Shown piece after piece: positions 11,861-61,802 of a stretch of 64,000 nucleotides of DNA. Location: the IMG/VR virus record IMGVR_UViG_3300022602_000033; one strand, given 5' to 3'. The position numbers and the translations under genes were made by a program. Below the pieces are notes generated by a model. That model was not told the DNA's origin. It made no database searches and was given only the letters and a program-made list of their open reading frames with translations. Position 1 is the first letter of the stretch, and the number at the start of each line of letters is the position of its first letter. Origin of the DNA: a virus.

Positions 11861-12973
11861 TTAAAGTTCAGCACTTGCTGTAAAGTAATTTGCAGCTGTG
11901 GTCCACCAAGCACAGCCTCCTGTGCCACCCGTGGATGTAGCTCCAAAACTAAACGCTGTTTGTCCCGTATACAGCACGCTAGGGGTGTTGTAATCTGAAG
12001 TTTTTTGTATAGTGCCTACTATAGATACCGTGGGTACTATACGTTTATACACCATCGGCACATTTACCACTGCTGCCCACCAGCCGGCAGCATTGGATCC
12101 TTGTATAGCATAGAAGCCGTGATCAGTGTTACCCAGTACTTCAAAGTAGCGCTGGCATAAGAACAGTTCTTGTCCATACTGCCTGCGCTCAAACGGTGTG
12201 GCCACAGAACCTACCTCGGCCTGTGCGTAGCTGATATCAACACTGACACCGGAAGCAATACCACTATTAAAGGCTATGCCAAATTCCTGGCCAAGATTGG
12301 CAGTGCTGTTCAGAGTAGCAGTGACTGTTATGATGTTCAATCCAGAATTCACAGTAACACCTGTGCTAAAGCTGGTGGTGGTGCTGGCATAGTTGTTGGT
12401 AGCAGTCGGGCTTAAAGCGTATAGGGATACTCCGGTTATAGCAGTGCTGGCGTAGATCAACACCCTGAATGTGACCTGTGTACTTGATAGATCATCAGTG
12501 TTGAGATTTTCCACACGCTGACCAAAGTTGCAGCCAGTGCTGCCAGTGTTTCCAGTTATGCGGAATGCATAGGGAGTACCAGTGTTGGTACCAGCTACCT
12601 GTTGGCCGGTGAGCGTTGCACCTGTGGGATAGATGAACCATCTGTCCACACCATAGTTAAGCTGACCAAGGCTAGCTGTGTAGCTGGCTCCGCTGCGACG
12701 CTGGTCAATTTCCATGGCACCATTTATCAACCTATTGCGCATGCCAAAGCTTTTGCTAGTCATGAACTGGCTGGCATCGCCCATGGTAACTACACCATTG
12801 ACCTGCAGCGCAGTGGTGGGTGTGCTGGTGCCTATGCCTATGCTGGTGCTGGCTGTGACTGTAGATGCTGACAGTGACTGAGCGGTTAACACCACGTTGT
12901 TGCCAGTGTTGTTCAACACTGCAGATCCAGCGCTTGCGCTCAGTCCCAGGGTTCCGTCAAGGTAAAGGCTCAT
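11861..12973 (-). CDS. Fibre/adhesin protein, CQRY-AEL family (class A N-terminus)
   Basis: RNRLINGAM.IDQR...ATPFERR.YG.EL.LCQRY...SAEL; carbohydrate-binding-like beta domain. Confidence 0.8.
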   Translation of the reverse strand: MSLYLDGTLGLSASAGSAVLNNTGNNVVLTAQSLSASTVTASTSIGIGTSTPTTALQVNGVVTMGDASQFMTSKSFGMRNRLINGAMEIDQRRSGASYTASLGQLNYGVDRWFIYPTGATLTGQQVAGTNTGTPYAFRITGNTGSTGCNFGQRVENLNTDDLSSTQVTFRVLIYASTAITGVSLYALSPTATNNYASTTTSFSTGVTVNSGLNIITVTATLNSTANLGQEFGIAFNSGIASGVSVDISYAQAEVGSVATPFERRQYGQELFLCQRYFEVLGNTDHGFYAIQGSNAAGWWAAVVNVPMVYKRIVPTVSIVGTIQKTSDYNTPSVLYTGQTAFSFGATSTGGTGGCAWWTTAANYFTASAEL

Positions 12974-12976
12974 GTG

Positions 12977-14077: not shown

Positions 14078-14080
14078 GGT

Positions 14081-15193
14081 TTATAGCTCCGCCGTGAAAT
14101 CAAGATAATTTCCGCTGCTGCTGGCGATGATCATGGCTGCTCTGCCAGTGGTCAAGCTTCCGCCTGCGCTGTTGGTGCCCACGTTGAAGCTGGCAGCGAC
14201 CGTGCCAGATGATTGCGCACTGATGCTGGTAACACCATTGATCACGGAACCATCATACACGCTGACTCCGCTGTAGCCAACGGTTGGCGCTGCTCGCATG
14301 GTCACCGGATTCACTGCTGTGATCTGGGCCGCGCTAGTAGCGCCATTGACCGCACCCACTGCCATGGTCTGGCTGCCAGATGCTGCCACATATGTGTTAC
14401 GGTAATAGTACCTCTGGCACAGTGCTAGCTCTGTAGTAAACTGCCTGTACTCAAACGGCGTTGCTGTGCCAGCCCGCTCCAGCTGCACACCAGTGATGTA
14501 GAATGTGGCACCTGAGGTACCCACTACATTCACCGAACCTGTTGGAGCTATGTAGGTACTATTGGTCCAAGCATTGGCAGGTCCGGTAAAGCTGCTACCT
14601 GTACCTAGTGCCCAGCTTACCAATATGCCTGCAGTGTTATTGGTTGGATAACTTCCTGTGGTATCGCCAGGGATGATTACAGTAATATATGTCCAGGTAT
14701 TGGCTGCTGAGATTGTGTACAAGAAAGGATACCATCTGGCACCACTTCCCTGTGCAATACTAGCGCCAAATGATCCAGTCAGCGATGAGTACACATAGAA
14801 ACTCAGAGTCACTGTCTTGGCATTGGCAGTGCCCCATGCTAGATCGGCTGTGTTGTAGCCTTCAATGCTCTGCCGTATGAGAAAATAATCACTGGATAGA
14901 ACGCTGTAGGCGCTGGATGATGTGAGACCCTGGTAATTAGCAAAACCCACGGGCGGACTAACTGAACCAGCATTCTGTTGGGCGGTGAATTTGGATACCT
15001 GTGTTCCTTGAAACCAGAATCTGTCAACCATGTATTGGCCGCTGGTTGGGGTTATAACAGACCCGGCATTCCTCTGGTCTATGACCATGGCGCCGTTGAT
15101 GATGCGGTTCCTGAAACCAGTGTAGCCGCTGGTGGGCTGAGCTGACCCATCTGGGAAGGTTAGACCGTTGATGCCATCCACATACAAGCTCAT
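14081..15193 (-). CDS. Fibre/adhesin protein, CQRY-AEL family (class A N-terminus)
   Basis: Start at 15193 (MSLYVDGING) overlaps the upstream stop as ATGA; same motifs. Confidence 0.8.
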   Translation of the reverse strand: MSLYVDGINGLTFPDGSAQPTSGYTGFRNRIINGAMVIDQRNAGSVITPTSGQYMVDRFWFQGTQVSKFTAQQNAGSVSPPVGFANYQGLTSSSAYSVLSSDYFLIRQSIEGYNTADLAWGTANAKTVTLSFYVYSSLTGSFGASIAQGSGARWYPFLYTISAANTWTYITVIIPGDTTGSYPTNNTAGILVSWALGTGSSFTGPANAWTNSTYIAPTGSVNVVGTSGATFYITGVQLERAGTATPFEYRQFTTELALCQRYYYRNTYVAASGSQTMAVGAVNGATSAAQITAVNPVTMRAAPTVGYSGVSVYDGSVINGVTSISAQSSGTVAASFNVGTNSAGGSLTTGRAAMIIASSSGNYLDFTAEL

Positions 15194-15663
15194 ATGATCA
15201 CCCACCTAGTTCCTGGTTGCACTGTGACGTTGGCCCCTGGGTTCAGAGTGATGTTGCCCACGCTGAACGCATTCTGGTTTGTGGGTATGGTATAGGCTGC
15301 GCTGATGGTCTTGTTGGTGCTCTGTATCACCCCGCTGGGATCAGTGGTGAAGTTGTTGGCGTTCATGTTGCCACCAACCTGCAGCGCTGTGACAGGGCTG
15401 GCAGTGCCTATGCCCACGTTGCCACCATAGACGTTCAGCGCTGCGGTGGGGCTCACAGTGTTGATACCAACCTGACCAGCAGCATTGATCACCAGCACCT
15501 GCGCAGTGTTGGTCACCAAGCTCAGCGTGTTGGTGCTTGGACTGAACATGCCCACGGGTACCGTGGTACCAACCGCGACATTGACGTTGTTCACAGTGAG
15601 GCCGCCCGTGACGTTGAAGGCACTGCTCTGTGATATCAGCGTGGGTATTACCTGATCAACCAT
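15190..15663 (-). CDS. Short fibre adaptor with C-terminal 'WVII' domain (class D N-terminus)
   Basis: GNVGIGT repeats; C-terminal YTIP...NA.SVG.IT...VTV..G.RWVII. Confidence 0.75.
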   Translation of the reverse strand: MVDQVIPTLISQSSAFNVTGGLTVNNVNVAVGTTVPVGMFSPSTNTLSLVTNTAQVLVINAAGQVGINTVSPTAALNVYGGNVGIGTASPVTALQVGGNMNANNFTTDPSGVIQSTNKTISAAYTIPTNQNAFSVGNITLNPGANVTVQPGTRWVII

Positions 15664-15666
15664 GTG

Positions 15667-17169: not shown

Positions 17170-17195
17170 TGCGCGGATCCGGCTAGTGTGCGGGA

Positions 17196-17201
17196 TATTT
17201 A
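17196..17201 (-). promoter_or_regulatory. Late promoter core TAAATA
   Basis: GCTAAATATC on - strand upstream of 17169. Confidence 0.65.
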
Positions 17202-17220
17202 GCTGGGCTAGCTTTGGCTA

Positions 17221-17316: not shown

Positions 17317-17319
17317 GTG

Positions 17320-20150: not shown

Positions 20151-20993
20151 CTATACTATGCTCCATGTGCTACCACTGCTGATGGTAACTGTTATGCCGT
20201 TGTTGATGGCCACTGGACCAAACGTGCCGGCATTGCTGCCCACGGGCACGGTGTAGTTGGTGGTCACAGTGTTGCCGTTCTGCCAGAATATCTGATCGCC
20301 ACCGCCGCCCTGCGCACCACCCAGCTGACCCCAGCTGGTGCCATTGTAGCCTTCAAACAGGCTGTAGCTGCTGTTGTAGCGCAGTACACCAGCTGTGGGT
20401 GAACCAGGTCGCTGTGCGGTGGTACCCACGGGAACCAGCATGGCATCCGTGCCGTTGATCACCAGCTTGAATGCTGCTGTAGAGGTGTTGATGCCCACGT
20501 TGCCATTGGCATCCCAGCTGGGTCCGCCAGTGCTCAGCTTGGTAGGCGTCACAGATCCATCGTTGGGTATGGCTATGCCGGTGGCATAGGTGTTGACCAT
20601 GATCTCAATGTTGCTGTTCAGCGGTGGTGCACCCTGCAGGAAGGTGATGTTGGTGCCGCTCCAAGTGTAGGTGTTCTTGCGCTGATACACACCTGATATG
20701 TACACGTTGGTGTCCAGGGTGCTGGTGGCATTGTAGTTGCCCGTGGCAAAGGTGGTGGTCACGCCGTTGCCAGTATAGTCGAAGATGCTGATAGCATTGG
20801 TCACCGAAGCCAGGCTGCTGCCATCAGCAAACACCAAGCTGCCAGCCAGCGTGACGTTGTTGACCGTGATGTTGCCAGCGTTCATGTACTGCACGGTTGA
20901 GACGTTGCCGCCAAACACCGCCACGTTGACGTTGCTGGTGCTGCCGCTGCTCAGTGCTAGGTTAGCGAGGTTATATGCGATTGAAGTTGCCAT
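20151..20993 (-). CDS. Fibre adaptor: class E N-terminus, GVYQRK beta-sandwich, C-terminal 'WSIV' domain
   Basis: AYNLANLA; YTGNG..ISGVYQRK..IEI; PVGTTAQRP; NYTVP..NA..GP...VTI..GSTWSIV. Confidence 0.78.
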   Translation of the reverse strand: MATSIAYNLANLALSSGSTSNVNVAVFGGNVSTVQYMNAGNITVNNVTLAGSLVFADGSSLASVTNAISIFDYTGNGVTTTFATGNYNATSTLDTNVYISGVYQRKNTYTWSGTNITFLQGAPPLNSNIEIMVNTYATGIAIPNDGSVTPTKLSTGGPSWDANGNVGINTSTAAFKLVINGTDAMLVPVGTTAQRPGSPTAGVLRYNSSYSLFEGYNGTSWGQLGGAQGGGGDQIFWQNGNTVTTNYTVPVGSNAGTFGPVAINNGITVTISSGSTWSIV

Positions 20994-21013: not shown

Positions 21014-21337
21014 CTAGGGCTTGGGGAAACGAGACTTTACAGCGTCACAGGCTGTGAGATATGCATCCATCAGCCTGGTGTCACCGCGCTGAGCCCAGTA
21101 ATATGCATCAGCGAACACTGCAAGGCTGGGATATTCAGCCATGCGCTTGTCCTTGTATTCGGCAGCTACCTCTGCTGCTGCTAGCTCTGCTGCCCTTGCA
21201 CGTATCTGCTCGACAGTTGGCGGATTGGCGATGTCCCCGTACCAGACCAAAGTGTCTGGATCATCGTTCCACATGCCAAATTCCACGAAAGGAGCCAGAT
21301 CCTTGACTGCTCGGAAGTGATGGTTGGTCCTCTTCAT
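21014..21337 (-). CDS. Small fibre assembly chaperone (XkdW-like)
   Basis: PT.EQI...YK.KR.AEYPS...VK.RFPKP; directly follows an EIAA-tip fibre. Confidence 0.65.
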   Translation of the reverse strand: MKRTNHHFRAVKDLAPFVEFGMWNDDPDTLVWYGDIANPPTVEQIRARAAELAAAEVAAEYKDKRMAEYPSLAVFADAYYWAQRGDTRLMDAYLTACDAVKSRFPKP

Positions 21338-23121
21338 GCTGCTATCTCCATGCAGGTCCAGCTGCTGTAGAAATCACCAGAGCTGCCCACGAACACGGTG
21401 TTGCCGCAGCCAGTGGCGCAGGCCCAGAGGCTGTAGGTTATGGCGCTGGCCGTGGCTGGACTGTCAAGGTAAGTGAAGGTAAACGCAGGCATGTCGTTGG
21501 TATAGCTAGTCGTTGCAACATCTCGGTAGCTGTCCATGAGGCTGTTGGTTATCTGCGATCCATTCCTATAGATCCTCAGCTGGCCGTCGCATATGAACTG
21601 GCAACCTATGGTTATGATGTGCAGGACCTTGCTGTTGTTGTACTGTGGCGTAAAGCTGACATTAAATCCCGTGTTGGTCAGCGTGGCTGTGGTTGCGCTG
21701 TAAGAGCCATTGCCCAGGCTGGTCCAAGTGGTCTGTATGACAGATCCTGCTGGTACTGATGCTGCACTGATCTGCCTGTTGGCGTTGGTAGCGAAGGTAC
21801 CAGTGGTACCGTTGATGTTGAATCCAAAACCGCTGACGCCTGTGCCTGATTCGTCCAGCATCCTGAACGTGAGATTGTTGGCTGTTGTGCCATTGCCACC
21901 ATCAACCACCAAGTTCCATGTGCGCTTGCCCAACAGTCCTGCTGCCATGGTCCAGGACTGCTCAACTGACGTGGTTGGATACCAAAGAGACAGTGTTCGC
22001 AACGGGTTAGCTGTGCCAATGCCCACAGAGCCAGCGGTTTCCGCTAGAGTAATGTTTCTGTAAGCTGTGCCCTGTTCTATGGCCTGTATGCTCAGGCGGC
22101 GGTTGGTCGCAGTTGGATCAGTGATGAGGCTGATGTAACCCTGCAACTGGCTGGCTGATGGATCGTTGGATACGATCTGCAGGGTGCCTTGTCCACCACT
22201 AGGTGCCACATTCTTGGCCACAGTACCAATGGTGCTGGCATTGGTGCTGATGCTGGTCAAGTTGCTGCTACCCTGGGTATAGATCAGCAACCTGCTGGTG
22301 AAATTCGCAGTGCCTGCTACGTCTAATGTTGCAGCTGGCGCAGTGCTTCCGATGCCAACGCTGCCAGTAGGGGTTATGCGCATGCGTTCTGTCAGAGCAC
22401 TAGTTAGAGAACTGGTATCTCTGGTCATGAATATCAGCGCACCACCACCATTGGCAATGTTCTTGCTGGCTATCCTAGCTGTAGCAACAAGAGTGCTTTC
22501 ACCAAAATCCAGGGCAGGTTCTGAGTAAGATGAGCTGGCTAAACTCTGTATCCTAACCACAGTATTGCCTCCAGCAAACACAGCACTGGGTGCTGTGGCA
22601 CTACCGGCCACTGTCAGAGGAACCGTGGTACCGGTCGTGGCAATGCCAACGTTGCCGCCACTGTCGATGCGCATGCGTTCTGCGCTGTTGGTTAGGAATA
22701 CCAGCGGAGTATTGGTGTTGGTGCGCAGCTCTGATTGTGCACCGTTGGCAGTGAGTGCTGTAGTGGATTGAGAATTCTGTACCGTTACAGAAGTATATGA
22801 ATTATCAGTGCTGACCACTGACAGTGAAGTATTAGTACCAGACAGATTCTGTATCGCAGTGGTACCGCGCAGCGTGGTTGCGCCGTAAACATCCAATAGG
22901 CTGTAGGCCTGCGAGCCTCCAACAGCCACGCAGCCAACGTTGTTGATCAGCACTGCCTGCGCACTGTTGGTAGCTATGGCAAGATTGTTGCTGCTGGCTA
23001 GGAAGAGGCCATTGGTTGGTAGGCTGTTAGCTGTGACTGAGAGGTTCCCAAAGATGCCTGCCGCGGTGGTCTGCACCACTGCATTGCTCTGTATCATTGG
23101 TCCTTGGAGGAAGTCTGTCAT
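21334..23121 (-). CDS. Fibre protein, class D N-terminus, EIAA-family tip
   Basis: ERMRI repeats; tip GSVIQT...TP...SKVL...YLDSPAT.SA.TY...MEIAA. Confidence 0.8.
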   Translation of the reverse strand: MTDFLQGPMIQSNAVVQTTAAGIFGNLSVTANSLPTNGLFLASSNNLAIATNSAQAVLINNVGCVAVGGSQAYSLLDVYGATTLRGTTAIQNLSGTNTSLSVVSTDNSYTSVTVQNSQSTTALTANGAQSELRTNTNTPLVFLTNSAERMRIDSGGNVGIATTGTTVPLTVAGSATAPSAVFAGGNTVVRIQSLASSSYSEPALDFGESTLVATARIASKNIANGGGALIFMTRDTSSLTSALTERMRITPTGSVGIGSTAPAATLDVAGTANFTSRLLIYTQGSSNLTSISTNASTIGTVAKNVAPSGGQGTLQIVSNDPSASQLQGYISLITDPTATNRRLSIQAIEQGTAYRNITLAETAGSVGIGTANPLRTLSLWYPTTSVEQSWTMAAGLLGKRTWNLVVDGGNGTTANNLTFRMLDESGTGVSGFGFNINGTTGTFATNANRQISAASVPAGSVIQTTWTSLGNGSYSATTATLTNTGFNVSFTPQYNNSKVLHIITIGCQFICDGQLRIYRNGSQITNSLMDSYRDVATTSYTNDMPAFTFTYLDSPATASAITYSLWACATGCGNTVFVGSSGDFYSSWTCMEIAA

Positions 23122-34933: not shown

Positions 34934-34936
34934 TGC

Positions 34937-50000: not shown

Positions 50001-50338
50001 GAAACACGCTGCTTGCCCACTGGATCCAGCTGCGTTTCAAACGGTGTCACATAGTCCTGCTGCTCATCAACCAGGATCTGCAGCTGGTCAGTGCTCTTGA
50101 AGCCGCTGCCCGTGGTGTTGTAGGCCACGGTGATGTTGGTGATCACGCTGCCAGGATTGGTGTTATAATCATAGGCAAATGTGGCCAGCAGGTTGGGATC
50201 GCTGAAGTTGTATATCACCGTGTTGTTGGTCACGTCCGTGATCAGCAGCAAGCGCTGCTGCGCTATGTATCCAGGTATGCTGACCAGCTTCAGAGCCGGT
50301 GTGAAGGTGTAGTATACCTGTGGTGTTACGCGACGCAT
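47045..50338 (-). CDS. Large virion structural protein (fibre/baseplate-associated)
   Basis: CAGGAG RBS; YTF.P...LLLIT.VT...IYNF.DP, RVS.PQALIDTDFEYG.Q.TKWE, RQTRR.FRYQSGKG; beta-rich. Confidence 0.75.
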   Translation of the reverse strand: MRRVTPQVYYTFTPALKLVSIPGYIAQQRLLLITDVTNNTVIYNFSDPNLLATFAYDYNTNPGSVITNITVAYNTTGSGFKSTDQLQILVDEQQDYVTPFETQLDPVGKQRVSEPQALIDTDFEYGLQPTKWETIGLTNNKPSYYVNFQTPLPINDINATNGSTTFTVNVGFTAGTGTISTSGNAVTGTNTLFTQQLNTGFYMFNSSLLPIGSVAVINSDTSVTLVANALNAGGGAAFSYTNQSLPVAGQPMFVSDTNFAGANGSFMIENTNQYGNGLVATTRYAFTGTTGSILNPSATTVYQGALYTGTAYALNPSVSNITFSGTQATFAFAQPHGMQVGNGIMVSNSNVATFNGSWTVTGFTNDSNVTVNLNATPASGSNVANVIPRTDLVISHRAFDGGVFFTTGNPVAHNVAVIRQTRRWFRYQSGKGIQVSTGTIVKPQIPVDTVTANTTAPGALITIKTKTPHYLSAGANIYVGNTATVTGGVGATNINGITSGYAAAYTVQQTPDAYTINVYAQQTLGSTTLTGIPNLGPNSWYGSKVRMGLFEQQNGLFWEYDGQNLYAVRRSATQQLSGYVSVTQGSSVVTGITGPDGTTPVFSTQVLPSDYIVIRGQTYRVLQILSNTSMTITPPYRGATISQAQVSKVQDNRIIQSSFNIDRLDGTGPSGYAIDLTKIQMWYVDYSWYGAGFVRWGVRTVDGQIYYAHKLQHNNIQYLSYMRSGNLPGHYEVNNEVPETQLTQTFAASATTLNVANTAAFPSTGGILLIKDYNNQEYVSYDTVTATSFNVTTRGQTATSVAAVNTTSGNCNVTTSTSVTNVQAGMYVTGTGIPSNTYIQKVVYGAPNTMTLNQAPTATGTITMSTLAMANANATHTYSATQPIGIQQHAPFFTPQIAHWGTSAIMDGRFDNDKSYVFIAGMVGAISVGQNQRSALMSLRIGPSVQGGQTSTLGRQELINHMQLVPYEMDIASNGLFLMTLVLNGVVAAPTTTNFAPVGGSSLAQVAYHPVGTTITGGEPVFAFFAATAGGSAYAVTQQDLTIVRDLGNSILGGGTNNTAGQQVYPDGPDVLSVVCQNIDTGSKNIQARLSWQEAQA

Positions 50339-50360: not shown

Positions 50361-53300
50361 TCATCCGTCTGCCAGCGCTATGTTCAGCGGCTTGAACGGA
50401 TAGGTAACTGTGTTGTTGACTGGTGCGGTGTTGCTGAGCACGCGACCACTGAAATCCTGCTGCCAGCGCGGAGCGTTGGCAAACACTATGGTATGACCAT
50501 TGTTCAGTTTGTAGCCGCGTGTGAATAGTGTAACCTCGCTCAAGTCAATGTAGTCTGGGTTGGTGATGAATGGTGCCAACACAGCACCACCCACAGAGAC
50601 CAACAGCTGCTGTGGAGTAGCGATATTTATGTTGCTCGTTCCTATGTACAGATTGAAAGTTGTGGTCTGGCCATCGAACGCAGTGCTGATATCATTGAGA
50701 ACCTGCAGCTGATTCTGGCTGCTGGTGTTCTGCGTGCTGCCATCTGGGAACGTGAGTGTACCACCTATGGTGAGGTTGCTGCTGATGCTGGCTGTGCCTG
50801 TGATGGCCAAGTTACCGCCCAGCGCCAGTCCGCCGCTGGTGGTCAAGCTGCCAGTGGTGTTGATGTTGCCGTAGAAGTAGCTGGGCCCGTAATACTGGCT
50901 GGTGCCTACCACCACGAACGCATTGCTGTTGGCACTGGTGCCTATGCCCACGTTGCCGGTGAATATGTCACCAGTCCTGCGGATCACGTCGCCTATGGCA
51001 AAGGTCATGCTGCTGACCACTTCCACGTTGGTGCCTGCTAGCACACCGCTGGCCAACACCACTGTGGAACCGTCGGTGGCAGTGTAATCAGTGCCATATA
51101 TCAGCTTGATACCGTTGAGATACACGTCAACATAGGGGCTCACATAGGGGCCTTGGCTGGCAAAGGTTGTCTGTCCTGCGCTGGCCACATACAGCGCCTT
51201 GCGCTGAGTAGCCAGCTGTCCCAGCGTGCTGCCCTGTGTCCAGCCTTCGAACGTGACCAAGCTGTTCTTGAGCGGAGCGTTGGTGAACTGCACAGATGTG
51301 CCAGTGGTAGCTGTGTAATCATAACCGCTGGCCAGCTTGACACCGTTCACATAAACGTCAAGATAGCCAACCGTGTAGGTGAAGCCTGTGTTCCACACCG
51401 TGATACCTGACGTTTGCACGTTGAACACGTTGTTGCCCTGTATCTGCTGCACACCGTTGGTGTTCCAACCAGTGAGCTGAACTATGCTGTTCACAGGTGG
51501 CGCAGCGCTGAAGGTCACCGACGTACCGTTGGTTGCTGTGTAATCAATGCCGTTGGTCAGCTTGATGCCGTTGAGGTACAGATCCAGATAACCCACTGTG
51601 TAGACAAATCCAGTGTTCCACACCGTGATGCCTGATGTCTGCACGTTGAACACGTTGCTGCCTGCGATCTTGCTGCCCACGTTGGTTAGGCTGGTAGCAG
51701 GCACCGTGATGCGTATCTCAACTCGAGCATACTGCACCGCACCCACTGTGAGCACTATGTTGGTTCCAACCCAGGCATAGGTGCTGGTGCGCTGATACAC
51801 GCCGTTCACGAACACCTGCGTGAGGTTCACGCCCTGTGGACCCGGGTTGTATGGATACACTGAGAAGGTGTTCTGGCCAGCAGTGGCCGTGAACGTGAAG
51901 GTCTGCACAGCAGCATTAGGTGCGCTGGTCTGTATGGTACCATCAGCAAACACTATGCCGTTGCTGCCGCCAGTGGCGCTGTTGCCTATGTGTATGTTAC
52001 CCCAAACGTCTAGGTTATAGGCCGGAGCACTGGTGCCTATGCCCACGCTGTTGGTGTTGCCAAAGAACACCAATCCATTGCTGCCACCTAGCGCACCATT
52101 GAAGTTGTACTGTATGCTGGTGTTGGAACCACCAGGCGTGCTGCCACCGCCACCGCCGCCCATGCTGGCTGTGTACTGGTAGGTACCGTCTGGGAAGTAG
52201 ATACCCACGTTGCTGCTTGTGCCTGTGCCGCGCAGCACGATATTTCCGTACTGGTTGGTGGCACCATACACGGTCATCACGTTGCTGGTAGCACCAAGGC
52301 TGCTGGCAGTGCCTATGCCCACGTTACCAGCAAAGGTGCTGGTGGTAGCAGAGCCCACATTTAGGTTACCGCCAATGCCAGCGCCGCCAAACATCTGTAG
52401 CGCACCTGACGTGCTTGATGTGCTGGCTGTGGCATTGGTTATGGTGAGGTTGCCTATGCTGACGTTGCCGCTGAGATAGCTGGCCACGTTGACATTGCTG
52501 TAGCTGCCACCACCGCCTGCGGTTATCAAGTATGATCCGTCGGCGAAGTAGATGCCTGCTGTGCTGCCCACACCCTTCTGGATCACCAAGTTGCCGTATA
52601 GAGTTTCCGTGCCATACACAGCAAACACGTTGCTGCCCACGCCTGTGGCAGTGCTGGTGCCAATGCCCACGTTGTTGGCAAACAGGTTATAGGTACCACC
52701 AACGTTGAGATTGCCACCTATGCCCACACCACCTGTGATGACCAGAGCACCAGTGGCGGTAGAGATGCTGGTGTTGCTGCTGAGCACTGTGACATTTTGA
52801 CCAAACGCACCATACACGTTGCTGACCACGGCGTTGACAGTGGCTGTGCCTGCGGCGGTGATCAAGCTGTTGCTGATCACGCTGCTGGCCACCAAGCTGT
52901 TGCTGGCAACCACGAAGCTGAACTGTGCTGCGTTGCTGACTGTGAGATTACCGCCAACGTTTAGGTTACCACCTATGCCCGCACCGTTGGTTATCACCAA
53001 CGCACCAGTGCTGCTGCTGGTGCTGGCATTGGCACCTGCAACGATCATGTTACCGCTGAAGTTGTTCTGCTGGCCGCCTATGTTGATGTTGCCCTGTATG
53101 CCAGCACCGCCTCCCATGAGCAGCGCACCAGTGGTGGTAGACGTGCTCACTGTGGTGTTGTTGATGGTGAGGTTGCCAATCTGCACTGGTCCGCTGAGAT
53201 AGCTGGTCACGTTGGCATTGCTGTAGCTGCCACCACCGCCTGCCGTGATCAGATAGCTGCCGTCTGCAAAGTAGATACCAGCCTGTCCTGCAGTGTTCTG

Positions 53301-56300
53301 CAGCACCAAGTTACCATACAGCGTCTCTGTGCCATACACAGCAAAAACGTTGCTGTTGACGCCTGTGCTGCTGCTGGTGCCTATGCCCACTGAGTTGATG
53401 AACAGGCTGCGAGACCCGCCCACGTTTAGGTTACCGCCCATGCCCACGCCGTTGGTTACCACCAACGCGCCAGTGCTGCTGGTGGTGCTGGCATTGGTGC
53501 CATTTACCAATAGGTTGCCACCAAAGGTGTTCTGCTGACCTTGGCTGCTGATGTTGCTGGTGACGACCACGTTGCCTGCAACATAGAGGTTGCCTCCTAT
53601 GCCCGCACCATTGGTTACTATGAGGGCACCAGTGGTTGGGCTGATGCTGACGTTTGCACCATTGACCAGGAGGTTACCAGTGAAGTTGTTCTGCTGTCCA
53701 GCTGCGTTGACGTTACCACCGATACCAGCGCCACCCAACACAACCAGAGCGCCATTGTTGCTGGCAGTGCTGGCATTGGTGCTGTTGATGGTCACATTCT
53801 GACCAAACAAACCGTACACGTTGCTGGTCAAGCTGTTGACCAGCGCATAGGTACCTGCTTGTATGTAGGTGTTAGAAGTGATGCTGCTGGCTATCACAGC
53901 GCTGGTGATGTTTAGGTTAGCAGCCTGTATGTAGGTGTTGCTGACCAAGGCGTTGACAGTGGCTAATCCGCTGGTCTGCAGCGTGCCACCGTAGACATTG
54001 TTGTTGCCTATGAGTGCATTCACAGTCACAGTGCCGGCTGCTTGTATGAATCCGTTGCTGTATAGATTGCCTGCGAAAGCAGTGCCTGTGATGTTGAGGT
54101 TGGCACCCTGTATGTTGGCGTTGGCAATGAGGCTGTTGACCTGTGCCAGTCCAGTGCTGTTCAGCGTGCTGGTAGTGATATTGTTGTTGCTGATGATGCT
54201 GTTAAGCTGTGCCAGTCCACTGGTGTTCAGCGTGGCACCAAACACGTTGTTGTTGCTGATCAGAGCATTCACAGTGGCAGTGCCGATGGCCTGTATGGTA
54301 GTGTTGCTGATGAGGCTTAGAACTTGCGCAGCGCCTGTGCTATTCAGGGTAGCTGTGGTAATATTATTATTAGATATCAAGCTGTTAAGCTGCGCCAATC
54401 CCGAAGTGTTGAGCGTGGCGCCAAACACGTTATTGTTGGCTATCAACGCATTAACAGTGGCTGTTCCCGCGCTCTGTACCGTGGTATTGCTGATAATGCT
54501 GTTGAACAGGCCCGCACCACTGGTGGTGATGCTGGCCCCTGTTATGTAACCATTGCTGACCAGATTGGCTACCTGAGCCAGTCCTGATGTGTTGAGAGTA
54601 GCTCCAAACACGTTGTTATTAGCTATCAGTGCGCTAACGCTGGCTGTACCACCAGTGCTGAGTGCCGTGCTAAAGCTGCCAACTCCGCGCACATCCAGCG
54701 TGCTCAGAGGCGTGTATGTGCCCACACCCACAGATCCCTGCACAGCCAGTCCGTTGCTGGGCGGGTTGACGAAGCTGTTGTTGCCTACCCAGCTGCTGCC
54801 TATCACTGTGGTGCCATTGACTTCCAAAGGATTCTGAGGTATGGTAACCCCGCTGATGCCAACGCCAGTCTTGTTGAAGCTGATCATGCTGCTGGCAGCA
54901 CCAGTGTATTTGAGGTAACCGTAGGCAGTGCCTGCTCCGCTGGCAAAGCCCAGGGTAGCACCATCTGTGGTACCGTTGCCCACTTCTATCTGCTGATCAG
55001 CGCCATTGGTGGTGTTGAATATGGCAGGCGTGCTGCCATATACCATGAAGCTGTTGGTGAGGCCTGCAACCGTGGTGCCCACACCCAGTCTGGTGTTGAC
55101 CTTGTCGAACAGGAAGTTGGCTGTGCCACCCAGCTTGCCATTGTCGTTGAACTGCACGCTTTCATTGACACCGGCCACTGTTGCTGCGGTCTGCAAGAAC
55201 GTGCCGTCTGGGAAGTAGATGCCTGATCCGCCAGCAGCAGTGTTGCTGATAACCAAGTTACCATAGAGATTTTCAGTACCATAGATGCTGGCTGTGTTTG
55301 CCAGTCCCAGGCTTGCGGTGGTTCCTATACCTATCTTTGTGGCAAACAGGGTGTTTACCCCGCTGATATTGCCGCTGACACCTGTGGTGGTTATGCTGCC
55401 ATTGCTGGTTAGATTGCCAACTGTGACGTTACCCACTGCCTGTATGGTAGTGTTGCTGTAGATGTTGTTGCCAACTATGGTACCATTGCTGTTTAAGCTG
55501 GCAGCTGTGAACGCACCGCCTTGCACGAAGCTGTTGCTGTAGATACCTGTGCCTACTATGACACCATTGCTGTTGATCGCAGCAGCAGTCACTGTGCCCG
55601 CTGCTGTTATCAGACCATTGCTGACCATGCTGCTGGCCACCACTGCACCGTTGCTGTTTAAGCTAGCAGCAGTGAAAGCACCGCCCTGCACGAATCCGTT
55701 GGAATAGATGTTGGCACCAACTATGGTGCCATTGCTGTTTACAGCTGCAGCTACAACTGTGCCTACAGTCTGTATGATGCCGTTGCCATACAGCTGATTT
55801 AGGTACACGTTGCCGGCTGCTTGTATGGTGCTGTTAGAAGTGATCTGGCTGGCTACTATGCTGCCGTTGCTGTTGACTCCGCCCACAGTGATGTTGCCAG
55901 CTGCTTGTATGGTGCTGTTGCTCCATATCTGGCTGCCCACTATGGTACCGTTGGCATTGAGGCCGCCTGCCGTGACGTTACCGCTGGCCTGCACGGCACC
56001 GTTGCTGAAGAAGTTGCTGCCTACTATGGTGCCATTGCTGTCAATGCTGGCTGCTACCAATGCACTAGCAGTCTGTATGATGCCATTGCTGAAGATGCTG
56101 GCCGCTGTGATGGCGTTTGATGCTACCACGTAGCTGAACTGTGCACCGTTGTTGGCCACTAGGTTTCCGCCCACATAGAGATTGCCCAGTATGCCAGCGC
56201 CTGCTGCCACAGTTAGCGCACCTGTGGTAGCGCTGGTGGCAGTGTTAGAGCCACTGATGTTGACATTGCCAGTGAAGTTGCTGACCTGTCCACCAACGTT

Positions 56301-59300
56301 GATGTTACCACCCACGCCTATGCCACCTATGGTTACCACACCACCGGAAGTTGTGTTAGTGCTGATGCTCTGTGCGTTGCTGAGCCAGATGTTGCCAAAC
56401 ACAGCTCCGCCGTATATCACACCTGGATAGCTGTCAGCATTCTGGTCCGTGACATTGAGTAGACCCGGTGCCACGTTGGTGAGGAAGATCAGCCTATCTG
56501 TGCTGTCCTGCCAGCCAAGGAACGCATGGTTGAATCCCGCAAGCTCGCCATTGAACGGCGGATCCTTGTAGTAGTCCATGAACAGGCCACGGTCAAATCC
56601 ATCGTCAACTACCAGAGGTGTGCCGCCAGTGCCAATGCCCAGCTGCACGGTTGGATTGGTGATGCTCAAGCTCTGGACCGTGATGGTGGTGCTGTTACCG
56701 CCAAGGGTTAGGTTTCCAGTAACCTGCAGGTTACCTGTGATCTTGCTGTTGCCAAACGCTTGCAAGCCACCGCTGGTGATGCTGATAGTGGTATTGCTGG
56801 TCAGACCATTGACCACTGCAGCACCGGCGCTCTGTATGGTGCTGTTGCTGCTGAGGCTGCCTACCAGTGCTTGTCCGCTGCTCTGCAGCGTGGCGCCAAA
56901 CACGTTGGTGTTGCTGATGAGATTATTAACCGTGGCTGTGCCGCCAACCTGTATGGCACCGTTGCTGTTCATGCTGGCGAATATTGCAGCGCCGCTGCTG
57001 GTTATAGTGCCAGTGCTGATGCTGCTGTTAACGGTGAGATTGGCTATCTGTGCATTGCCAGTGACGTTGAGATTAGCAGTGGTGGTATAACCATTGCTGG
57101 TGACGTTGCCAAACTGTGCAGTGCCATTGCTCACGATGGTGGCACCAAACACATTGTTGTTTGATATCAGTGCGTTGACTGTGGCAGTGCCTGCGGCCTG
57201 TATGGTGCTGTTGCTCCAGATCTGCGTGCCAACTATGGTACCATTTGAGTTAACACCGCCGACAGTGAGATTGCCGTTGGCCTGTATGAAGGTGTTGCTG
57301 TACAGAGCATTTACAGTGGCAGTGCCTAGGCCCTGTATGGTTGTATTTGCTATTAGACTATTGACTTCAGCAGCGCCAGTGGCATTGAAGGTAGCAGTTG
57401 TGGTGTTGGTGTTGCTGATCAGGCTGCCAACTATGGCACCACCTGCGCCCACGTTCAGAGATGCTGTGCTGGTAGCTGTGTTGACATTGAGGCTGTTGAC
57501 CTGTGCCAGACCTGCGATGTTGAGGTTGGCGCCGTAGACATTGGCATTGGCTATCAGTTGATTAACCGTGGCCAGCCCAGTGCTCTGTATGGTGCCATTG
57601 CTGTACACGTTGCCTGCCCAAGCAGTGCCTGAGATGTTGAGATTGGCACCAGTGATGTTGGCATTGGCCAGCAGGCTGTTTACCGTGGCAGCGCCCGCAG
57701 CCTGTATGGTGGTGTTGCTGTTGATGCTAGCGACAACCGCAGCACCGGTGCTGTTCAAAGTGTTTGTCGTGGTGTTGTTGTTTGATATCAGGCTGCTGAC
57801 CTGCGCTAACCCAGTGCTGTTTAAGGTAGCACCGGTGATGTTGTTGTTGCTGATCAGGCTGTTGACCTGAGTCAATCCGCTGGTGTTCAGTGTTGCACCG
57901 TAGATATTGGTGTTAGCAATCAGAGCATTGACCGTGGCTGTGCCACCAACTTGTGCAGTGGTATTGCTGATCAAGCTGTTGACCTGCTCCAATCCACTGT
58001 TATTGAGCGAAGCAGTGGTGATGTTGGTATTGGACACCAAAGCATTGACCGTGGCAGTACCACCTATCTGAGCAGTGGTGTTACTGATCAAGCTACCAAC
58101 CTGGGCCAACCCAGCTATGTTGATGTTAGCACCGTAGATGTTTGCGTTGCTGATCAATTGGTTGGTGGTGGTCAATCCAGCTGTCTGGGTAAAGCCGTTG
58201 CTGTAGACATTGCCCGCGCTCAGTGTGCCAGTGATGCCAATCGAGCCAGTGGTTATGCTGGTGTTGACCACCAAGCTGTTCACAGTGCTCTGACCGCTGC
58301 TCTGCACTGTGGCGCCAAACACGTTGTTGTTGCTGATCAAGCTGTTGACGTATGCCACACCTGCAATGTTGATGTTGGCGCCATAGATGTTGGCATTGCT
58401 GATCAAGCTGTTTACCTGTGCCAATCCAGACGTATTAACAGTAGCACCATAGATGCTGGTGTTGGCAATCAGGGCATTTACCGTGGCTGAACCAGCAGCC
58501 TGTATGGTGGTATTGCTGCTGAGGCTGTTGACCGTTGCCTGTCCGCTGCTCTGCACAGTCGCACCAAACACGTTGGTGTTGGCCACCAGTGCGTTTACCA
58601 GGGCCAAACCTGTGGTGTTCAAGGTAGCAGTGGTGGTGTTGGTGTTGCTGATCAGTGCATTGACAGTAGCAGTGCCCAGTGCCTGTATGGTGGTATTGCT
58701 GACCAAGCTGTTGAGCTGTGCTAGCCCACTGGTGTTCAGCGTGGCGCCCGAGATGTTGTTGTTGCTGATCAGCGCAAACACCTGTGCCAAGGTCTTGACG
58801 TTCACGAAGGTGCTGGTGATGTTGGTGTTGCTGATGAGATCGTTTACTGTGGCCAGACCACGAGCATTCAGCGTGTTGGTGGTGGTGTTGGTGTTGGCCA
58901 CTATCTCGTTTAGCGTGGCCACACCGATGCTCTGTATGGTGGTGTTGCTGATCAAGCTGTTCACATAAGCAGCACCGTCCACCTGTATGGTGGTGTTGCT
59001 GATCATGCTGCCTGCCTGCAGCAGTCCGCTGATGTTGAGGCTGGCAGTGGCTATGCTGGTGTTTACAACCAATCCGCCCAGATCGCTTTCGCCTGCCACG
59101 CTGAACCTTCCGCGTATGCTGGCATTGGTCATCACATCCAGTGCGCTGCCAGGTGCAAACGTGCCTATGCCAACCCTGCCAACTGTGATCAAACCATCGC
59201 TGGGAGCAGTCTGCACACCTGCATAGGCCGATCCTATGGCTGTGCCGCCGCCAATGTCCAGAGTGTTGACCGGCACGGTTATGCCACCCACACCTGTGCC

Positions 59301-61802
59301 GGTCTTGGTAAATGCGATATTAGTCAGCACAGATCCTGCGTATTGAAGATAACCGTAAGCAGTAGTTGCCCCGCTGTTGAATCCAACTACTGCGCCGTCA
59401 CTGGCAGCGTTACCCACGATTATCTGTTGATCAGCACCGTTGGTGGTATTAAACAGTGCAGGACTGCCACCATAAACGCCCAAACTGTTGTTGAGCACGC
59501 TGGTACCAATGCCCAATCGAGCATTGACCTTGTCAAAGGCAAAGTTGCTCTGTCCAGCGAACGACCCAGCATCGTTGAACTGCACGCTGCGATCTGGACC
59601 AGCAGCCGATGTGCCTGCCGAAGTCTTCTGGAAGCTGCCGTCAGGGAAGTATATGCCTGTGCCAAACGTAGCAACATTGATGTTACCACCATAGACTAAT
59701 AGGTTATCACCTATCTTGATGTTGCTGCTGCCTATGCCCACACGGCCATATATCTGATGCACGTTGCCATAGGTAAGCAAGAGGTTACCGCTGACAGTAA
59801 GCGGTTGTGCAGGCATGTTTGTGCCTATGCCTAGGCGAACATTGCCGTTGTCCCAGAAGAATGCGCTGGTATTGCCGCTAAACACGTTGGCATTGCCAGC
59901 AAACTGTATGGTACCTGGCGCACCATAGCTGGGTGTGTAGAATGCAGCAGTGTTTTGGAATGTGCCATCACTGAAAGTGATGCCACTGGTAGTAGCAGTG
60001 TTGGCAATGTAGATGTTGCCCATGTAATTGGCAGTGCCAAGCACGCTGAGCACGTTGCTGCCTGTGACTGTGAGAGTGCCTATGGCCGCATTGGCATTGG
60101 CCACTATCCTGCCAAATCTGCCAACTCCTGCTGCCTGCACAAAGGTGTTGCTGGTCAAGCTGTTGACTGTTATGTCCTGTGCTACACCAACGTTTCCAAA
60201 CTGGAAATTGCCAGCAACGGTGAGATTACCGCCAATGACCAGATTGTTGCCAATGCTTTGGCTGTGGATCACATTGACGTTGCCGGCTGAGATGTTGCCA
60301 GTGACAGAGAACGATGGTGTGCTGATGCTGTTAGCCACCGTGAGCACACCAGTGCCATCCAGCGTCATCACCGGAGTGATGCCACCATACCATGCGAAGC
60401 TATATGTGCTGTTGTTCTGTGGCACGCCAGTCCACAGCACTGCGTTATCTATGCCTATGGCATAGTCCGTGTTAGAACCATCAACCTGATCAAACAACAC
60501 CAGCTTGCTGCCCGTGCTGCGGGTGACAAAGCTAGGTGGTGCATATCCGGTGATGCCAAAGTCTATGTAGTTGCCAAAATAGTTGTTGAGCGAGATCGTA
60601 CCACCGCTGATGGTCACGCAACCACTGATCTGCGCAGTACCCGTGTTGTTCCAGTTGCCCACGCTGTCCAGCTGTGCTATAACGCATCCACCGCCGTAGT
60701 AATTGTAGAAAGCACCACTGGGTATGGTGAAGCTCATGGCAGGGGTGGGATCTATGCCAAGGCTGTAGGGTATGTCCACACCATCGTTGTAGAGATTGAT
60801 CTTGGTGCCTGCACTGCCTGGACCGTAGCTGGGATAGTCCACGCCGTTGATGCCAAAGTCTATGAGATTGGCCGTGGCATTGTTGAGACTGACGAGGCCC
60901 CCGTTGACCTGCAGGGTGGTATTGCCGGCATACCAGGCAAAGTTGCTGGCATCGCCGCTGAATGTGTTGTCGTTGCCAGCGAACTGTATGGTGCCTGGTG
61001 GGCCATAGCTGGGCGTGTAGAAAGCAGCTGTGTTTTGGAACGTGCCATCTGGGAAGAGGATACCGCTGCTGGTGCTAGCGGTGTTGCCTATGTGTATGTT
61101 GCCGTAGATGTCCAGAGGATACTGCACTGTAGCAGTGCCTATGCCCACGTTAACGTTGGCAATGATCTGGTTGGCCTGCACATAGCTGGCAGCAGTTACG
61201 CTGCTGTCGCTTTGGATCAGTGCTCCGCTCAACAGTGATCCTGCACGCACAAAGGTATTGCTGGTTAGGCTGTTGACTGTGAGATCTTGGATGCCGCTGA
61301 TGTTGGCAACGTTGATGTTGCCGCTGATGTTGATAGCACCAGACACATAAAGGTTACCACCTATGCTAGCGCCTCCAACCACCTGCAGCGCCCCACTACC
61401 CGGAGTGGTGGTAGCTGTGTTGCTGAATATAGTGAGGTTGTTGGTGTTTAGCCTCGTACCACCAGCATCCCAATAGAGATTGCTGCTGTCACCCCTGAAG
61501 GTGTTGCCTGTGCCTGCAAACTGCAGGGTGTACTGTGGTCCGTAGCTCTGCGCAGCTTCATACTGGAAGCTACCATCTGGGAACACCAATCCGTAGCCCA
61601 CAGTGTTGATGGTGATGTTGCCACCAGCCACGTCCAGCCTGCTGCCCTGAGGTACTGTGCTGGTGCCGATGCCCACATTGCCACTGATAATAGCACCGTT
61701 GGCTATCTGAGGCGTGGCGGTGCTAGTGTATGTCCCGACTACTAGGTTGCTAGTGACCTGTAGTCCGTTCTTGACTACAAAGTCTTGATTGCGTGCGGCC
61801 AC
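50361..61802 (-). CDS. Giant (3813 aa) repetitive fibre protein, putative trunk of the fibre system
   Basis: GTG start; N/T/S/G/A-rich 17- and 22-aa repeats, FPDG..Q and GNVGIGT motifs, four C-proximal beta-sandwich domains plus terminal L.DIS..FDG domain. Confidence 0.85.
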   Translation of the reverse strand: MAARNQDFVVKNGLQVTSNLVVGTYTSTATPQIANGAIISGNVGIGTSTVPQGSRLDVAGGNITINTVGYGLVFPDGSFQYEAAQSYGPQYTLQFAGTGNTFRGDSSNLYWDAGGTRLNTNNLTIFSNTATTTPGSGALQVVGGASIGGNLYVSGAINISGNINVANISGIQDLTVNSLTSNTFVRAGSLLSGALIQSDSSVTAASYVQANQIIANVNVGIGTATVQYPLDIYGNIHIGNTASTSSGILFPDGTFQNTAAFYTPSYGPPGTIQFAGNDNTFSGDASNFAWYAGNTTLQVNGGLVSLNNATANLIDFGINGVDYPSYGPGSAGTKINLYNDGVDIPYSLGIDPTPAMSFTIPSGAFYNYYGGGCVIAQLDSVGNWNNTGTAQISGCVTISGGTISLNNYFGNYIDFGITGYAPPSFVTRSTGSKLVLFDQVDGSNTDYAIGIDNAVLWTGVPQNNSTYSFAWYGGITPVMTLDGTGVLTVANSISTPSFSVTGNISAGNVNVIHSQSIGNNLVIGGNLTVAGNFQFGNVGVAQDITVNSLTSNTFVQAAGVGRFGRIVANANAAIGTLTVTGSNVLSVLGTANYMGNIYIANTATTSGITFSDGTFQNTAAFYTPSYGAPGTIQFAGNANVFSGNTSAFFWDNGNVRLGIGTNMPAQPLTVSGNLLLTYGNVHQIYGRVGIGSSNIKIGDNLLVYGGNINVATFGTGIYFPDGSFQKTSAGTSAAGPDRSVQFNDAGSFAGQSNFAFDKVNARLGIGTSVLNNSLGVYGGSPALFNTTNGADQQIIVGNAASDGAVVGFNSGATTAYGYLQYAGSVLTNIAFTKTGTGVGGITVPVNTLDIGGGTAIGSAYAGVQTAPSDGLITVGRVGIGTFAPGSALDVMTNASIRGRFSVAGESDLGGLVVNTSIATASLNISGLLQAGSMISNTTIQVDGAAYVNSLISNTTIQSIGVATLNEIVANTNTTTNTLNARGLATVNDLISNTNITSTFVNVKTLAQVFALISNNNISGATLNTSGLAQLNSLVSNTTIQALGTATVNALISNTNTTTATLNTTGLALVNALVANTNVFGATVQSSGQATVNSLSSNTTIQAAGSATVNALIANTSIYGATVNTSGLAQVNSLISNANIYGANINIAGVAYVNSLISNNNVFGATVQSSGQSTVNSLVVNTSITTGSIGITGTLSAGNVYSNGFTQTAGLTTTNQLISNANIYGANINIAGLAQVGSLISNTTAQIGGTATVNALVSNTNITTASLNNSGLEQVNSLISNTTAQVGGTATVNALIANTNIYGATLNTSGLTQVNSLISNNNITGATLNSTGLAQVSSLISNNNTTTNTLNSTGAAVVASINSNTTIQAAGAATVNSLLANANITGANLNISGTAWAGNVYSNGTIQSTGLATVNQLIANANVYGANLNIAGLAQVNSLNVNTATSTASLNVGAGGAIVGSLISNTNTTTATFNATGAAEVNSLIANTTIQGLGTATVNALYSNTFIQANGNLTVGGVNSNGTIVGTQIWSNSTIQAAGTATVNALISNNNVFGATIVSNGTAQFGNVTSNGYTTTANLNVTGNAQIANLTVNSSISTGTITSSGAAIFASMNSNGAIQVGGTATVNNLISNTNVFGATLQSSGQALVGSLSSNSTIQSAGAAVVNGLTSNTTISITSGGLQAFGNSKITGNLQVTGNLTLGGNSTTITVQSLSITNPTVQLGIGTGGTPLVVDDGFDRGLFMDYYKDPPFNGELAGFNHAFLGWQDSTDRLIFLTNVAPGLLNVTDQNADSYPGVIYGGAVFGNIWLSNAQSISTNTTSGGVVTIGGIGVGGNINVGGQVSNFTGNVNISGSNTATSATTGALTVAAGAGILGNLYVGGNLVANNGAQFSYVVASNAITAASIFSNGIIQTASALVAASIDSNGTIVGSNFFSNGAVQASGNVTAGGLNANGTIVGSQIWSNSTIQAAGNITVGGVNSNGSIVASQITSNSTIQAAGNVYLNQLYGNGIIQTVGTVVAAAVNSNGTIVGANIYSNGFVQGGAFTAASLNSNGAVVASSMVSNGLITAAGTVTAAAINSNGVIVGTGIYSNSFVQGGAFTAASLNSNGTIVGNNIYSNTTIQAVGNVTVGNLTSNGSITTTGVSGNISGVNTLFATKIGIGTTASLGLANTASIYGTENLYGNLVISNTAAGGSGIYFPDGTFLQTAATVAGVNESVQFNDNGKLGGTANFLFDKVNTRLGVGTTVAGLTNSFMVYGSTPAIFNTTNGADQQIEVGNGTTDGATLGFASGAGTAYGYLKYTGAASSMISFNKTGVGISGVTIPQNPLEVNGTTVIGSSWVGNNSFVNPPSNGLAVQGSVGVGTYTPLSTLDVRGVGSFSTALSTGGTASVSALIANNNVFGATLNTSGLAQVANLVSNGYITGASITTSGAGLFNSIISNTTVQSAGTATVNALIANNNVFGATLNTSGLAQLNSLISNNNITTATLNSTGAAQVLSLISNTTIQAIGTATVNALISNNNVFGATLNTSGLAQLNSIISNNNITTSTLNSTGLAQVNSLIANANIQGANLNITGTAFAGNLYSNGFIQAAGTVTVNALIGNNNVYGGTLQTSGLATVNALVSNTYIQAANLNITSAVIASSITSNTYIQAGTYALVNSLTSNVYGLFGQNVTINSTNASTASNNGALVVLGGAGIGGNVNAAGQQNNFTGNLLVNGANVSISPTTGALIVTNGAGIGGNLYVAGNVVVTSNISSQGQQNTFGGNLLVNGTNASTTSSTGALVVTNGVGMGGNLNVGGSRSLFINSVGIGTSSSTGVNSNVFAVYGTETLYGNLVLQNTAGQAGIYFADGSYLITAGGGGSYSNANVTSYLSGPVQIGNLTINNTTVSTSTTTGALLMGGGAGIQGNINIGGQQNNFSGNMIVAGANASTSSSTGALVITNGAGIGGNLNVGGNLTVSNAAQFSFVVASNSLVASSVISNSLITAAGTATVNAVVSNVYGAFGQNVTVLSSNTSISTATGALVITGGVGIGGNLNVGGTYNLFANNVGIGTSTATGVGSNVFAVYGTETLYGNLVIQKGVGSTAGIYFADGSYLITAGGGGSYSNVNVASYLSGNVSIGNLTITNATASTSSTSGALQMFGGAGIGGNLNVGSATTSTFAGNVGIGTASSLGATSNVMTVYGATNQYGNIVLRGTGTSSNVGIYFPDGTYQYTASMGGGGGGSTPGGSNTSIQYNFNGALGGSNGLVFFGNTNSVGIGTSAPAYNLDVWGNIHIGNSATGGSNGIVFADGTIQTSAPNAAVQTFTFTATAGQNTFSVYPYNPGPQGVNLTQVFVNGVYQRTSTYAWVGTNIVLTVGAVQYARVEIRITVPATSLTNVGSKIAGSNVFNVQTSGITVWNTGFVYTVGYLDLYLNGIKLTNGIDYTATNGTSVTFSAAPPVNSIVQLTGWNTNGVQQIQGNNVFNVQTSGITVWNTGFTYTVGYLDVYVNGVKLASGYDYTATTGTSVQFTNAPLKNSLVTFEGWTQGSTLGQLATQRKALYVASAGQTTFASQGPYVSPYVDVYLNGIKLIYGTDYTATDGSTVVLASGVLAGTNVEVVSSMTFAIGDVIRRTGDIFTGNVGIGTSANSNAFVVVGTSQYYGPSYFYGNINTTGSLTTSGGLALGGNLAITGTASISSNLTIGGTLTFPDGSTQNTSSQNQLQVLNDISTAFDGQTTTFNLYIGTSNINIATPQQLLVSVGGAVLAPFITNPDYIDLSEVTLFTRGYKLNNGHTIVFANAPRWQQDFSGRVLSNTAPVNNTVTYPFKPLNIALADG
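53800..59050 (-). repeat. Degenerate 17/22-codon coding repeats (G.A.VN.LI.N..I...) in giant fibre
   Basis: Dozens of units such as GLAQVNSLISNNNITGATLNST and GTATVNALISN, interrupted by non-repeat domains. Boundaries approximate. Confidence 0.8.

Follow-up and report, generated by a model that had tools for sequence, protein, structure and literature searches.

What holds together a fibre array as large as the one in IMG/VR virus record IMGVR_UViG_3300022602_000033? The stretch analysed, 64,000 nucleotides (nt) of DNA and referred to here as the window, stems from an uncultured tailed freshwater phage. It carries about 34 consecutive minus-strand genes, from 61802 down to 11861, that code nearly all for fibre parts: Peptidase_S74 chaperone ends, glycine-rich tips, small chaperone-like proteins and an eight-member family of jelly-roll tips, 'AEL'. 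An earlier note on this DNA had proposed that these proteins build a tree, in which jellyroll domains of one fibre are sockets for the N-terminal plugs of others and the number of sockets matches the number of plug genes. Our analysis makes it probable that the locus codes for a receptor-binding complex branched on several levels, made of gp10-like branching domains and N-terminal anchor peptides and belonging to a very large tailed phage. Fibre genes are named by their start coordinate in the window (g36813 etc.). The window stops 2.2 kb upstream of the trunk gene, and all its gene counts refer to fibre genes up to 64000 only.

Jellyrolls and anchor peptides of the array

The domains in question are beta-jellyrolls of about 75-115 amino acids (aa), present in two types. 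The D-type motif G.YQ.[KT]..Y.W.GT, or its loose form Y.W.G[TS], was found exactly six times in the window. Homology of the copies was confirmed by BLAST; the six segments align over about 115 residues, and identity to the first copy is 55-58 % for the non-trunk copies and 35 % for the trunk copy. A family hidden Markov model, run with all filters off against every six-frame open reading frame (ORF) of at least 60 aa, returned the same six copies and no seventh. The E-type is present in three tandem copies at aa 3373-3601 of the trunk, of which E1 and E2 are 68 % identical and E3 32 %. A weak profile relation connects the E-type and D-type units (hhalign, E 3.4e-4). In g36813, g31791, g26493 and g20151 the jellyroll lies in the N-terminal region (aa 25-275), directly after the N-terminal motif; the four trunk copies are not N-terminal and occupy aa 3262-3601 of 3813. 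The genes and domains on which the argument rests are the following:

50361..61802, minus strand: trunk, a 3813-aa fibre protein with GTG start and four tandem XD-like jellyrolls near the C-terminus
51687..52019, minus strand: D-type jellyroll of the trunk, aa 3262-3372; proposed dock for the g44389 fibre
51000..51686, minus strand: E-type jellyrolls of the trunk, aa 3373-3447, 3448-3525 and 3526-3601; proposed docks for the three E-class proteins
47045..50338, minus strand: 1097-aa virion structural protein (phrog_5838, E 9e-244), always next after the trunk
44389..46518, minus strand: g44389, D-class fibre with TTG start, MVDFVPFPGMAS, and a C-terminal Peptidase_S74 chaperone; would pair with the D-type jellyroll of the trunk
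36813..39125, minus strand: g36813, E-class branch protein, MANSPAYGLSNYAL, with D-type jellyrolls at 38676-39023 (aa 35-150) and 38301-38648 (aa 160-275) and an S74 tip
35332..36816, minus strand: g35332, D-class, MTSFVPGYM, with a glycine-rich tip
33092..34933, minus strand: g33092, D-class, MTDYVAGTM, with an AEL/AEI-type jelly-roll tip
31791..32819, minus strand: g31791, E-class branch protein, MVSNAFNLANVA, with a D-type jellyroll at 32400-32747 (aa 25-140) and a C-terminal 'RWVIL' hub
29885..31051, minus strand: g29885, tip protein, MTSFINA; possible seventh plug (partial D motif)
26493..28655, minus strand: g26493, D-class, MVDYVFGAM, with its own D-type jellyroll at 28152-28499 (aa 53-168); proposed second-level branch point
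21334..23121, minus strand: g21334, D-class, MTDFLQGPM, with a tip domain
20151..20993, minus strand: g20151, E-class branch protein, MATSIAYNLANLAL, with a D-type jellyroll at 20553-20900 (aa 32-147) and a 'TWSIV' hub
15190..15663, minus strand: g15190, D-class adaptor, MVDQVIPTLISQ, with a 'RWVII' hub

Six long ORFs of the window start with the D-class peptide M[VT][DS][FYQ][VLI], and exactly three genes with the E-class peptide A[YF][GN]L[SA]N[YVL]A. The domains and starts listed in the earlier note, six and three of each kind at these genes, were all recovered, with the reservations that g44389 is a D-class gene only if a TTG start is accepted and that g29885 is a partial seventh candidate. 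Two of the three E peptides are mutually close and the third is an outlier, which parallels E1 and E2 versus E3. The motifs are kept as peptides and not as DNA: synonymous codon differences are many and the upstream DNA is unrelated. The gene order, too, is as the note had described it, each jellyroll-bearing gene being followed by its matching number of D-class genes. Among random orders at the given counts 26 % are ballot-valid and 1.0 % show the strict pattern in which each socket gene is filled before another one opens; as the genes are not independent after tandem module duplication, the latter figure is weakened and no true probability. A complex prediction for three chains each of g20151 aa 40-150 and g15190 aa 1-70 gave scores of 0.31 and 0.23 versus a mark of 0.32, without controls, and speaks neither for nor against binding.

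Predicted fold of the jellyrolls

The AlphaFold2 (AF2) model of g20151, based on a 150-row alignment, has a core at aa 68-134 with values of 87-98 in the predicted local distance difference test (pLDDT). Its best match in the PDB is the XD2 domain of CBA120 TSP4 (7rfv 187-250; Z 9.8, root-mean-square deviation (rmsd) 1.5 Å, 64 aa, 22 % identity). XD2 of T4 gp10 (5iv5_AC 157-251) matched with Z 7.0, T7 gp17-type N-terminal domains with Z 8-9 (7.9 at the lowest) and F-ENA with Z 6.7. The AF2 model of the trunk C-terminus has a mean pLDDT of 49.8, its usable part being the jellyrolls at 65-82. Trunk E1 matched TSP4 XD2 with Z 9.8 and an rmsd of 1.3 Å and T4 gp10 (5iv5_AC 159-251) with Z 8.3; E3 matched T7 gp17-N-type domains (Z 8.8-10.4). 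For the D-type copy in this low-confidence model only phage neck and portal-complex proteins were listed (Z 6.4-7.8). With the exception of this trunk D-type copy, the copies with a usable model are predicted to share the gp10-like XD2/XD3 'branching domain' fold. In CBA120 TSP4 and T4 gp10, docking has been mapped by experiment to XD2 and XD3 (PMC8825819), and the match thus points to the putative sockets as a known docking module.

Pfam profiles came close to their gathering scores without reaching them. Phage_T7_tail (PF03906) scored 21.4 bits versus 25.2 on g36813 aa 71-135 (E 2e-4), and DUF4183/F-ENA (PF13799) 23.7 bits versus 25.1 on g36813 (E 4e-5) and 18 bits on g20151. Among 1.84 billion cluster representatives, the jellyroll profile retrieved 3447 proteins at E <= 1e-3, mostly fibre-like and from aquatic phages.

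Related arrays and genome context

Related sequences are given here by L numbers, L016 being equal to L053. The complete relative, R, is contig Ga0209189_1000032 (L038 + L033), which extends from the trunk through the clamp loader. Trunk homologues of 2671-3830 aa are present in L016, L018, L025, L054, L055, L056 and L038, and cut short in L019 and L057; one D-type and three E-type C-terminal jellyrolls are common to all eight further trunk relatives. Where enough downstream sequence is available (L016, L018, L025, L038, L054), the trunk is followed by the 1097-aa protein and then by a fibre gene starting with MVDFVPFPGMAS (MVDFVPF). The 1097-aa protein is 37-39 % identical to cyanomyophage virion proteins and syntenic in L016, L018, L025 and L038. 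In L006 and L007 a 47 %-identical trunk-like protein precedes a variant D start, MVDFVPFTGLIAS.

The window, R, L058 and two partial contigs close to R contain three E-class genes each, and L041, which is cut at both ends, has three so far. The three E anchors are orthologous types (MANSPA.., M.SNAFN.ANVA and M..[ST][IQ]A[YF]NLANLAL) kept across lineages, so E-gene counts across relatives are not independent replicates. Beyond these anchors each protein varies: the number of jellyrolls is 0-2, and the end may be a hub or of the S74, glycine-rich, AEL or 'TYQLAL' type. Partners bearing D or E anchors recur near jellyroll genes in L016, L018, L025, L028, L029, L038, L041 and L058. The g36813 orthologues of the window, L028, L058 and L041 carry 2/1/1/0 jellyrolls and are followed by 2/1/1/0 D genes: in L028 and L058 one jellyroll precedes one D gene (MTDYVAG, the g33092-type start), and in L041 no jellyroll is present and no D gene comes before the next E gene. 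Two N-termini, of the g20151 type and the MVDQVIPTL type, are still adjacent in L029 despite different C-termini on both proteins, and in L044 the g21334 orthologue lies directly before the g20151 orthologue. The E/D array of L058 is not adjacent to a trunk, hence E/D genes can lie elsewhere. Whole-record searches of four IMG/VR relatives, 6-20 % complete, found only the trunk jellyroll, an absence that means little. L028 carries an extra remnant E gene.

In two small genes (L028 2455-2838; L058 7525-7968) an E or D anchor is joined directly to a foreign C-terminus. These genes resemble recombination remnants and show that anchors and tips are exchanged in modules. The cultured cyanomyophage Synechococcus phage S-RIM2 (L001, KX349240.1) has the same design in miniature at 5251-13463: a 1321-aa tail fibre with a terminal jellyroll, then a 138-aa hub protein, then four tip genes with related N-termini.

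On the plus strand at 9-12 kb of the window, a DNA polymerase III alpha fragment and a clamp loader are encoded, the latter 49.5 % identical to its counterpart in PA5oct-type jumbo phages. The clamp-loader gene is the boundary of the array, and the array of R ends at the same point. A megablast of 8 kb from the locus gave no match in 50,697 phage records, which indicates that there is no cultured close relative. The IMG/VR relatives behind L016, L018, L019 and L006, 29-103 kb long, were rated 6-20 % complete by CheckV; this suggests genomes of about 500 kb for the trunk-bearing lineage.

Several further features of the array were observed. The hub 'G.RWVI[IVL]' is the C-terminus of four proteins (44000-44392, 31791-32819, 20151-20993 and 15190-15663), each followed by three or four tip genes, and the same order of hub and tips is found in L016, L037 and L041. 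A similar ending, ..GWVIIGQ, closes many aquatic phage fibres after tandem jellyrolls. The trunk C-terminus, ..PLNIALADG, resembles the E-class motif A[YF]NLAN[LV]A, and so do the ends ..VLTY[QN]LAL or ..LLYNLAF of short adaptor-like proteins of the relatives (L038 15217, 16236 and 18024; L031 10001); such tails may be a strand-pairing joint. TAAATAT, which is T4-late-promoter-like, occurs 8-12 nt upstream of 39125, 32819, 28655, 23121 and 20993, which places it just ahead of the ATG in all three E genes and in two D genes. The branch modules may thus each be transcribed late as a separate unit with almost no leader. Inside the array, at 24990-26486 on the minus strand, lies an intact gene for a flavoenzyme of the tryptophan-halogenase family (PF04820, E 7.7e-97), flanked by g26493 and three tip paralogues of about 160 aa; the related contig L044 also holds a halogenase-like gene. 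A 119-aa ORF at 34930-35289, minus strand, shares sequence with the end of g35332 and with the start of g33092; its composition is unusual, rich in Trp, His and Met, and it is probably no real gene.

Proposed assembly, alternatives and known systems

By analogy with CBA120 TSP4, RaK2 gp528 and KP32 RBP1, the jellyrolls would each form a trimer to which another trimeric fibre attaches by its N-terminus. In the trunk, the divergent D-type copy would receive the S74 fibre g44389, and the three E-type copies would receive g36813, g31791 and g20151. One or two further D-type jellyrolls on g36813, g31791, g20151 and g26493 would hold the remaining D-class proteins, and the C-terminal hubs would each bring in about three more tips, for a total of roughly 20 distinct tips on three to four levels. 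We infer the binding of peptide to jellyroll, the assignment of peptides to copies and the occupancy of every copy. A wider claim is put forward tentatively, since we regard it as possible, though doubtful: a phage lineage with genomes of about 500 kb might use a recursive docking code of two jellyroll and two peptide classes to build a dendritic fibre of three to four levels at the distal trunk end. The number of jellyroll copies would set the number of sub-branches, copies would be gained or lost together with plug genes as in the 2/1/1/0 series, and multi-copy proteins would be bottle-brushes of a reused adaptor.

A number of results weigh against the branched complex or its numerical rule. 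In the window itself, the MTSFINA start of g29885 agrees in part with the D motif and would be a seventh, and module duplication by itself tends to keep counts balanced. The predicted fold is also that of the particle-binding 'plug' in T7 gp17-type fibres (Z 8-10). A sequence link to T4 gp10 was not found (hhalign with the 150-row profile, probability 1 %), and PDB sequence searches with both jellyroll profiles gave chance-level matches only; such a miss is expected because known XD domains are only about 10 % identical to gp10 (PMC8825819). Three tandem copies per fibre are the commonest form among the best 150 matches of the jellyroll family (58 of 150), so occupation of every copy as a socket is not required, and many may be structural. 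No E gene was found within 6 kb after the trunk module of L025. Counts differ in L058, with 2 jellyrolls versus 3 D genes, one of them resembling a recombination remnant, and most clearly in R, with 12 D-type jellyrolls versus only 3 D-class genes. The copies of R are distributed over the trunk (1), E430 (1), C829 (1), E334 (1), E310 (1) and D1390 (7).

The D-class protein with seven near-identical tandem XD-like jellyrolls, 1358-1390 aa long, is encoded by relatives (L038 19566 / L033 6809-10979; L002 5508-9584, P0001). It is not followed by a matching number of plug genes and could be a bottle-brush scaffold.

With the counts of R and L058, the numerical equality of jellyrolls and D genes does not hold, on the sequences compared, as a general grammar. 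Either a single adaptor occupies a number of equivalent copies, or part of the copies have a structural role; one gene per socket is probably a feature of the window's lineage and not a law. The correlation of counts in relatives, which the earlier note had set as a check, accordingly holds among the g36813 orthologues and breaks down in R and L058. Its socket-plug tree keeps the support of the XD2/XD3-like fold, of the KP32/K11 precedent and of the recurring trunk and anchors, and loses the equal counts as a general rule. Gene counts alone cannot serve to infer the tree.

The excess of jellyrolls in R, the seven near-identical copies in one protein and the prevalence of tandem triplets in single fibres suit an explanation in which the jellyrolls act as beads of the shaft with a structural or glycan-binding role. 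The D and E N-termini would then anchor elsewhere (baseplate, repetitive trunk shaft or C-terminal hubs), and the equal counts would result from module duplication and coincidence. The modules at 31791-26493 and 20151-15190, each composed of E anchor, jellyroll and hub, three tips and a D gene, indeed look duplicated. A mirror-tree comparison of socket and plug similarity over all 720 pairings ranked the proposed pairing 13-99 of 720, which is not discriminating, and with the trunk/g44389 outlier fixed 13-19 of 120 at best. We nevertheless hold beads to be unlikely: the best structural match is a proven docking domain, the jellyroll number co-varies with the following D genes among close orthologues, and the trunk jellyrolls have been retained jointly with the anchor types in different lineages. 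Homotypic docking of jellyroll on jellyroll, with g36813, g31791, g26493 and g20151 on the four trunk jellyrolls and the D-only proteins elsewhere, would fit the four jellyroll-bearing proteins found beside four trunk copies and the position of the domain directly after the N-terminal motif in each of them. It has a precedent in the docking of TSP2 XD2 on TSP4 XD2 proposed for CBA120 (PMC8825819). We judge it improbable, as the E peptide is retained after loss of every jellyroll (L041 E672, L058 E139, L028 E127), g36813 has two copies and P0001 seven. Least probable is the absence of any tree, with many independent fibres or alternative tips that bind the virion directly or belong to different particles and share N-termini by common ancestry only: PHROG tail-fibre matches of most array proteins are confined to shaft or tip regions, and none were obtained for g31791 or g26493, but tip-less proteins such as g15190 (157 aa), g44000 (130 aa) and a 91-aa D protein of the relatives are too short as stand-alone fibres, and at least five distinct anchor classes would require equally many baseplate sites.

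The branched complex, the reading we prefer, has its closest structural counterpart in CBA120 (Kuttervirus) TSP1-4 and T4 gp10, where the same small jellyroll fold occurs in tandem, one organiser protein receives the others, and a docked protein can carry further XD domains. In contrast, the trunk domains of the window lie near the C-terminus and are presumably distal, whereas those of CBA120 lie beside the N-terminal baseplate anchor. The window has two jellyroll sequence classes and two N-terminal peptide classes, and D1/D2 head domains, beta-helix depolymerases and sequence similarity to gp10 were not detected in it. The fold is likewise shared with T7 gp17-type N-terminal domains (PF03906; Z 7.9-10.4) and F-ENA (PF13799; Z 6.7); the former bind the particle and are no sockets, and the latter is a subunit of bacterial spore appendages. 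In KP32 and K11, which are podophages of Klebsiella, a conserved N-terminal peptide of 35 aa docks RBP2 on a T4gp10-like domain (PMC13579863). As proposed here, the short N-terminal peptide of the next gene is the plug for a gp10-like domain, and the anchor is conserved while receptor-binding domains are exchanged; however, KP32/K11 form one branch of two proteins versus up to about 20 tips on several levels, and the peptide motifs are unrelated.

RaK2 and phiK64-1 (Alcyoneusvirus) and phiKp24 (PMC10253068, PMC9700779) are jumbo phages with many fibre proteins as well. Their branches are depolymerase tailspikes with CBA120-like head domains and an N-terminal XD array, whereas the tips of the window are glycine-rich, jelly-roll or S74-type, the proposed tree is deeper (three to four levels) and C-terminal hubs add about three tips each. 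The earlier note knew of no description of such a grammar; the RaK2 model, a two-level tree, already counts XD domains against fibre proteins (PMC10253068). Mechanism and socket counting are therefore known, and the locus is a deep variant rather than a new principle. It is unusual in its depth, in its about 20 tips, in its two classes of domain and peptide and in the position of its primary branch point, close to the C-terminus of a 3813-aa trunk. If the docking code is true, the same small module functions even at the distal end of a very long fibre and can be nested over several levels. Such a code would provide a rule for reading host-range hardware from genomes of uncultured aquatic phages, and the anchors and jellyrolls would be a natural orthogonal connector set for multi-specific phage fibres. 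The branching design would then extend beyond the two proteins of KP32, the four of CBA120 and the nine of RaK2 to about 34 genes and about 20 tips.

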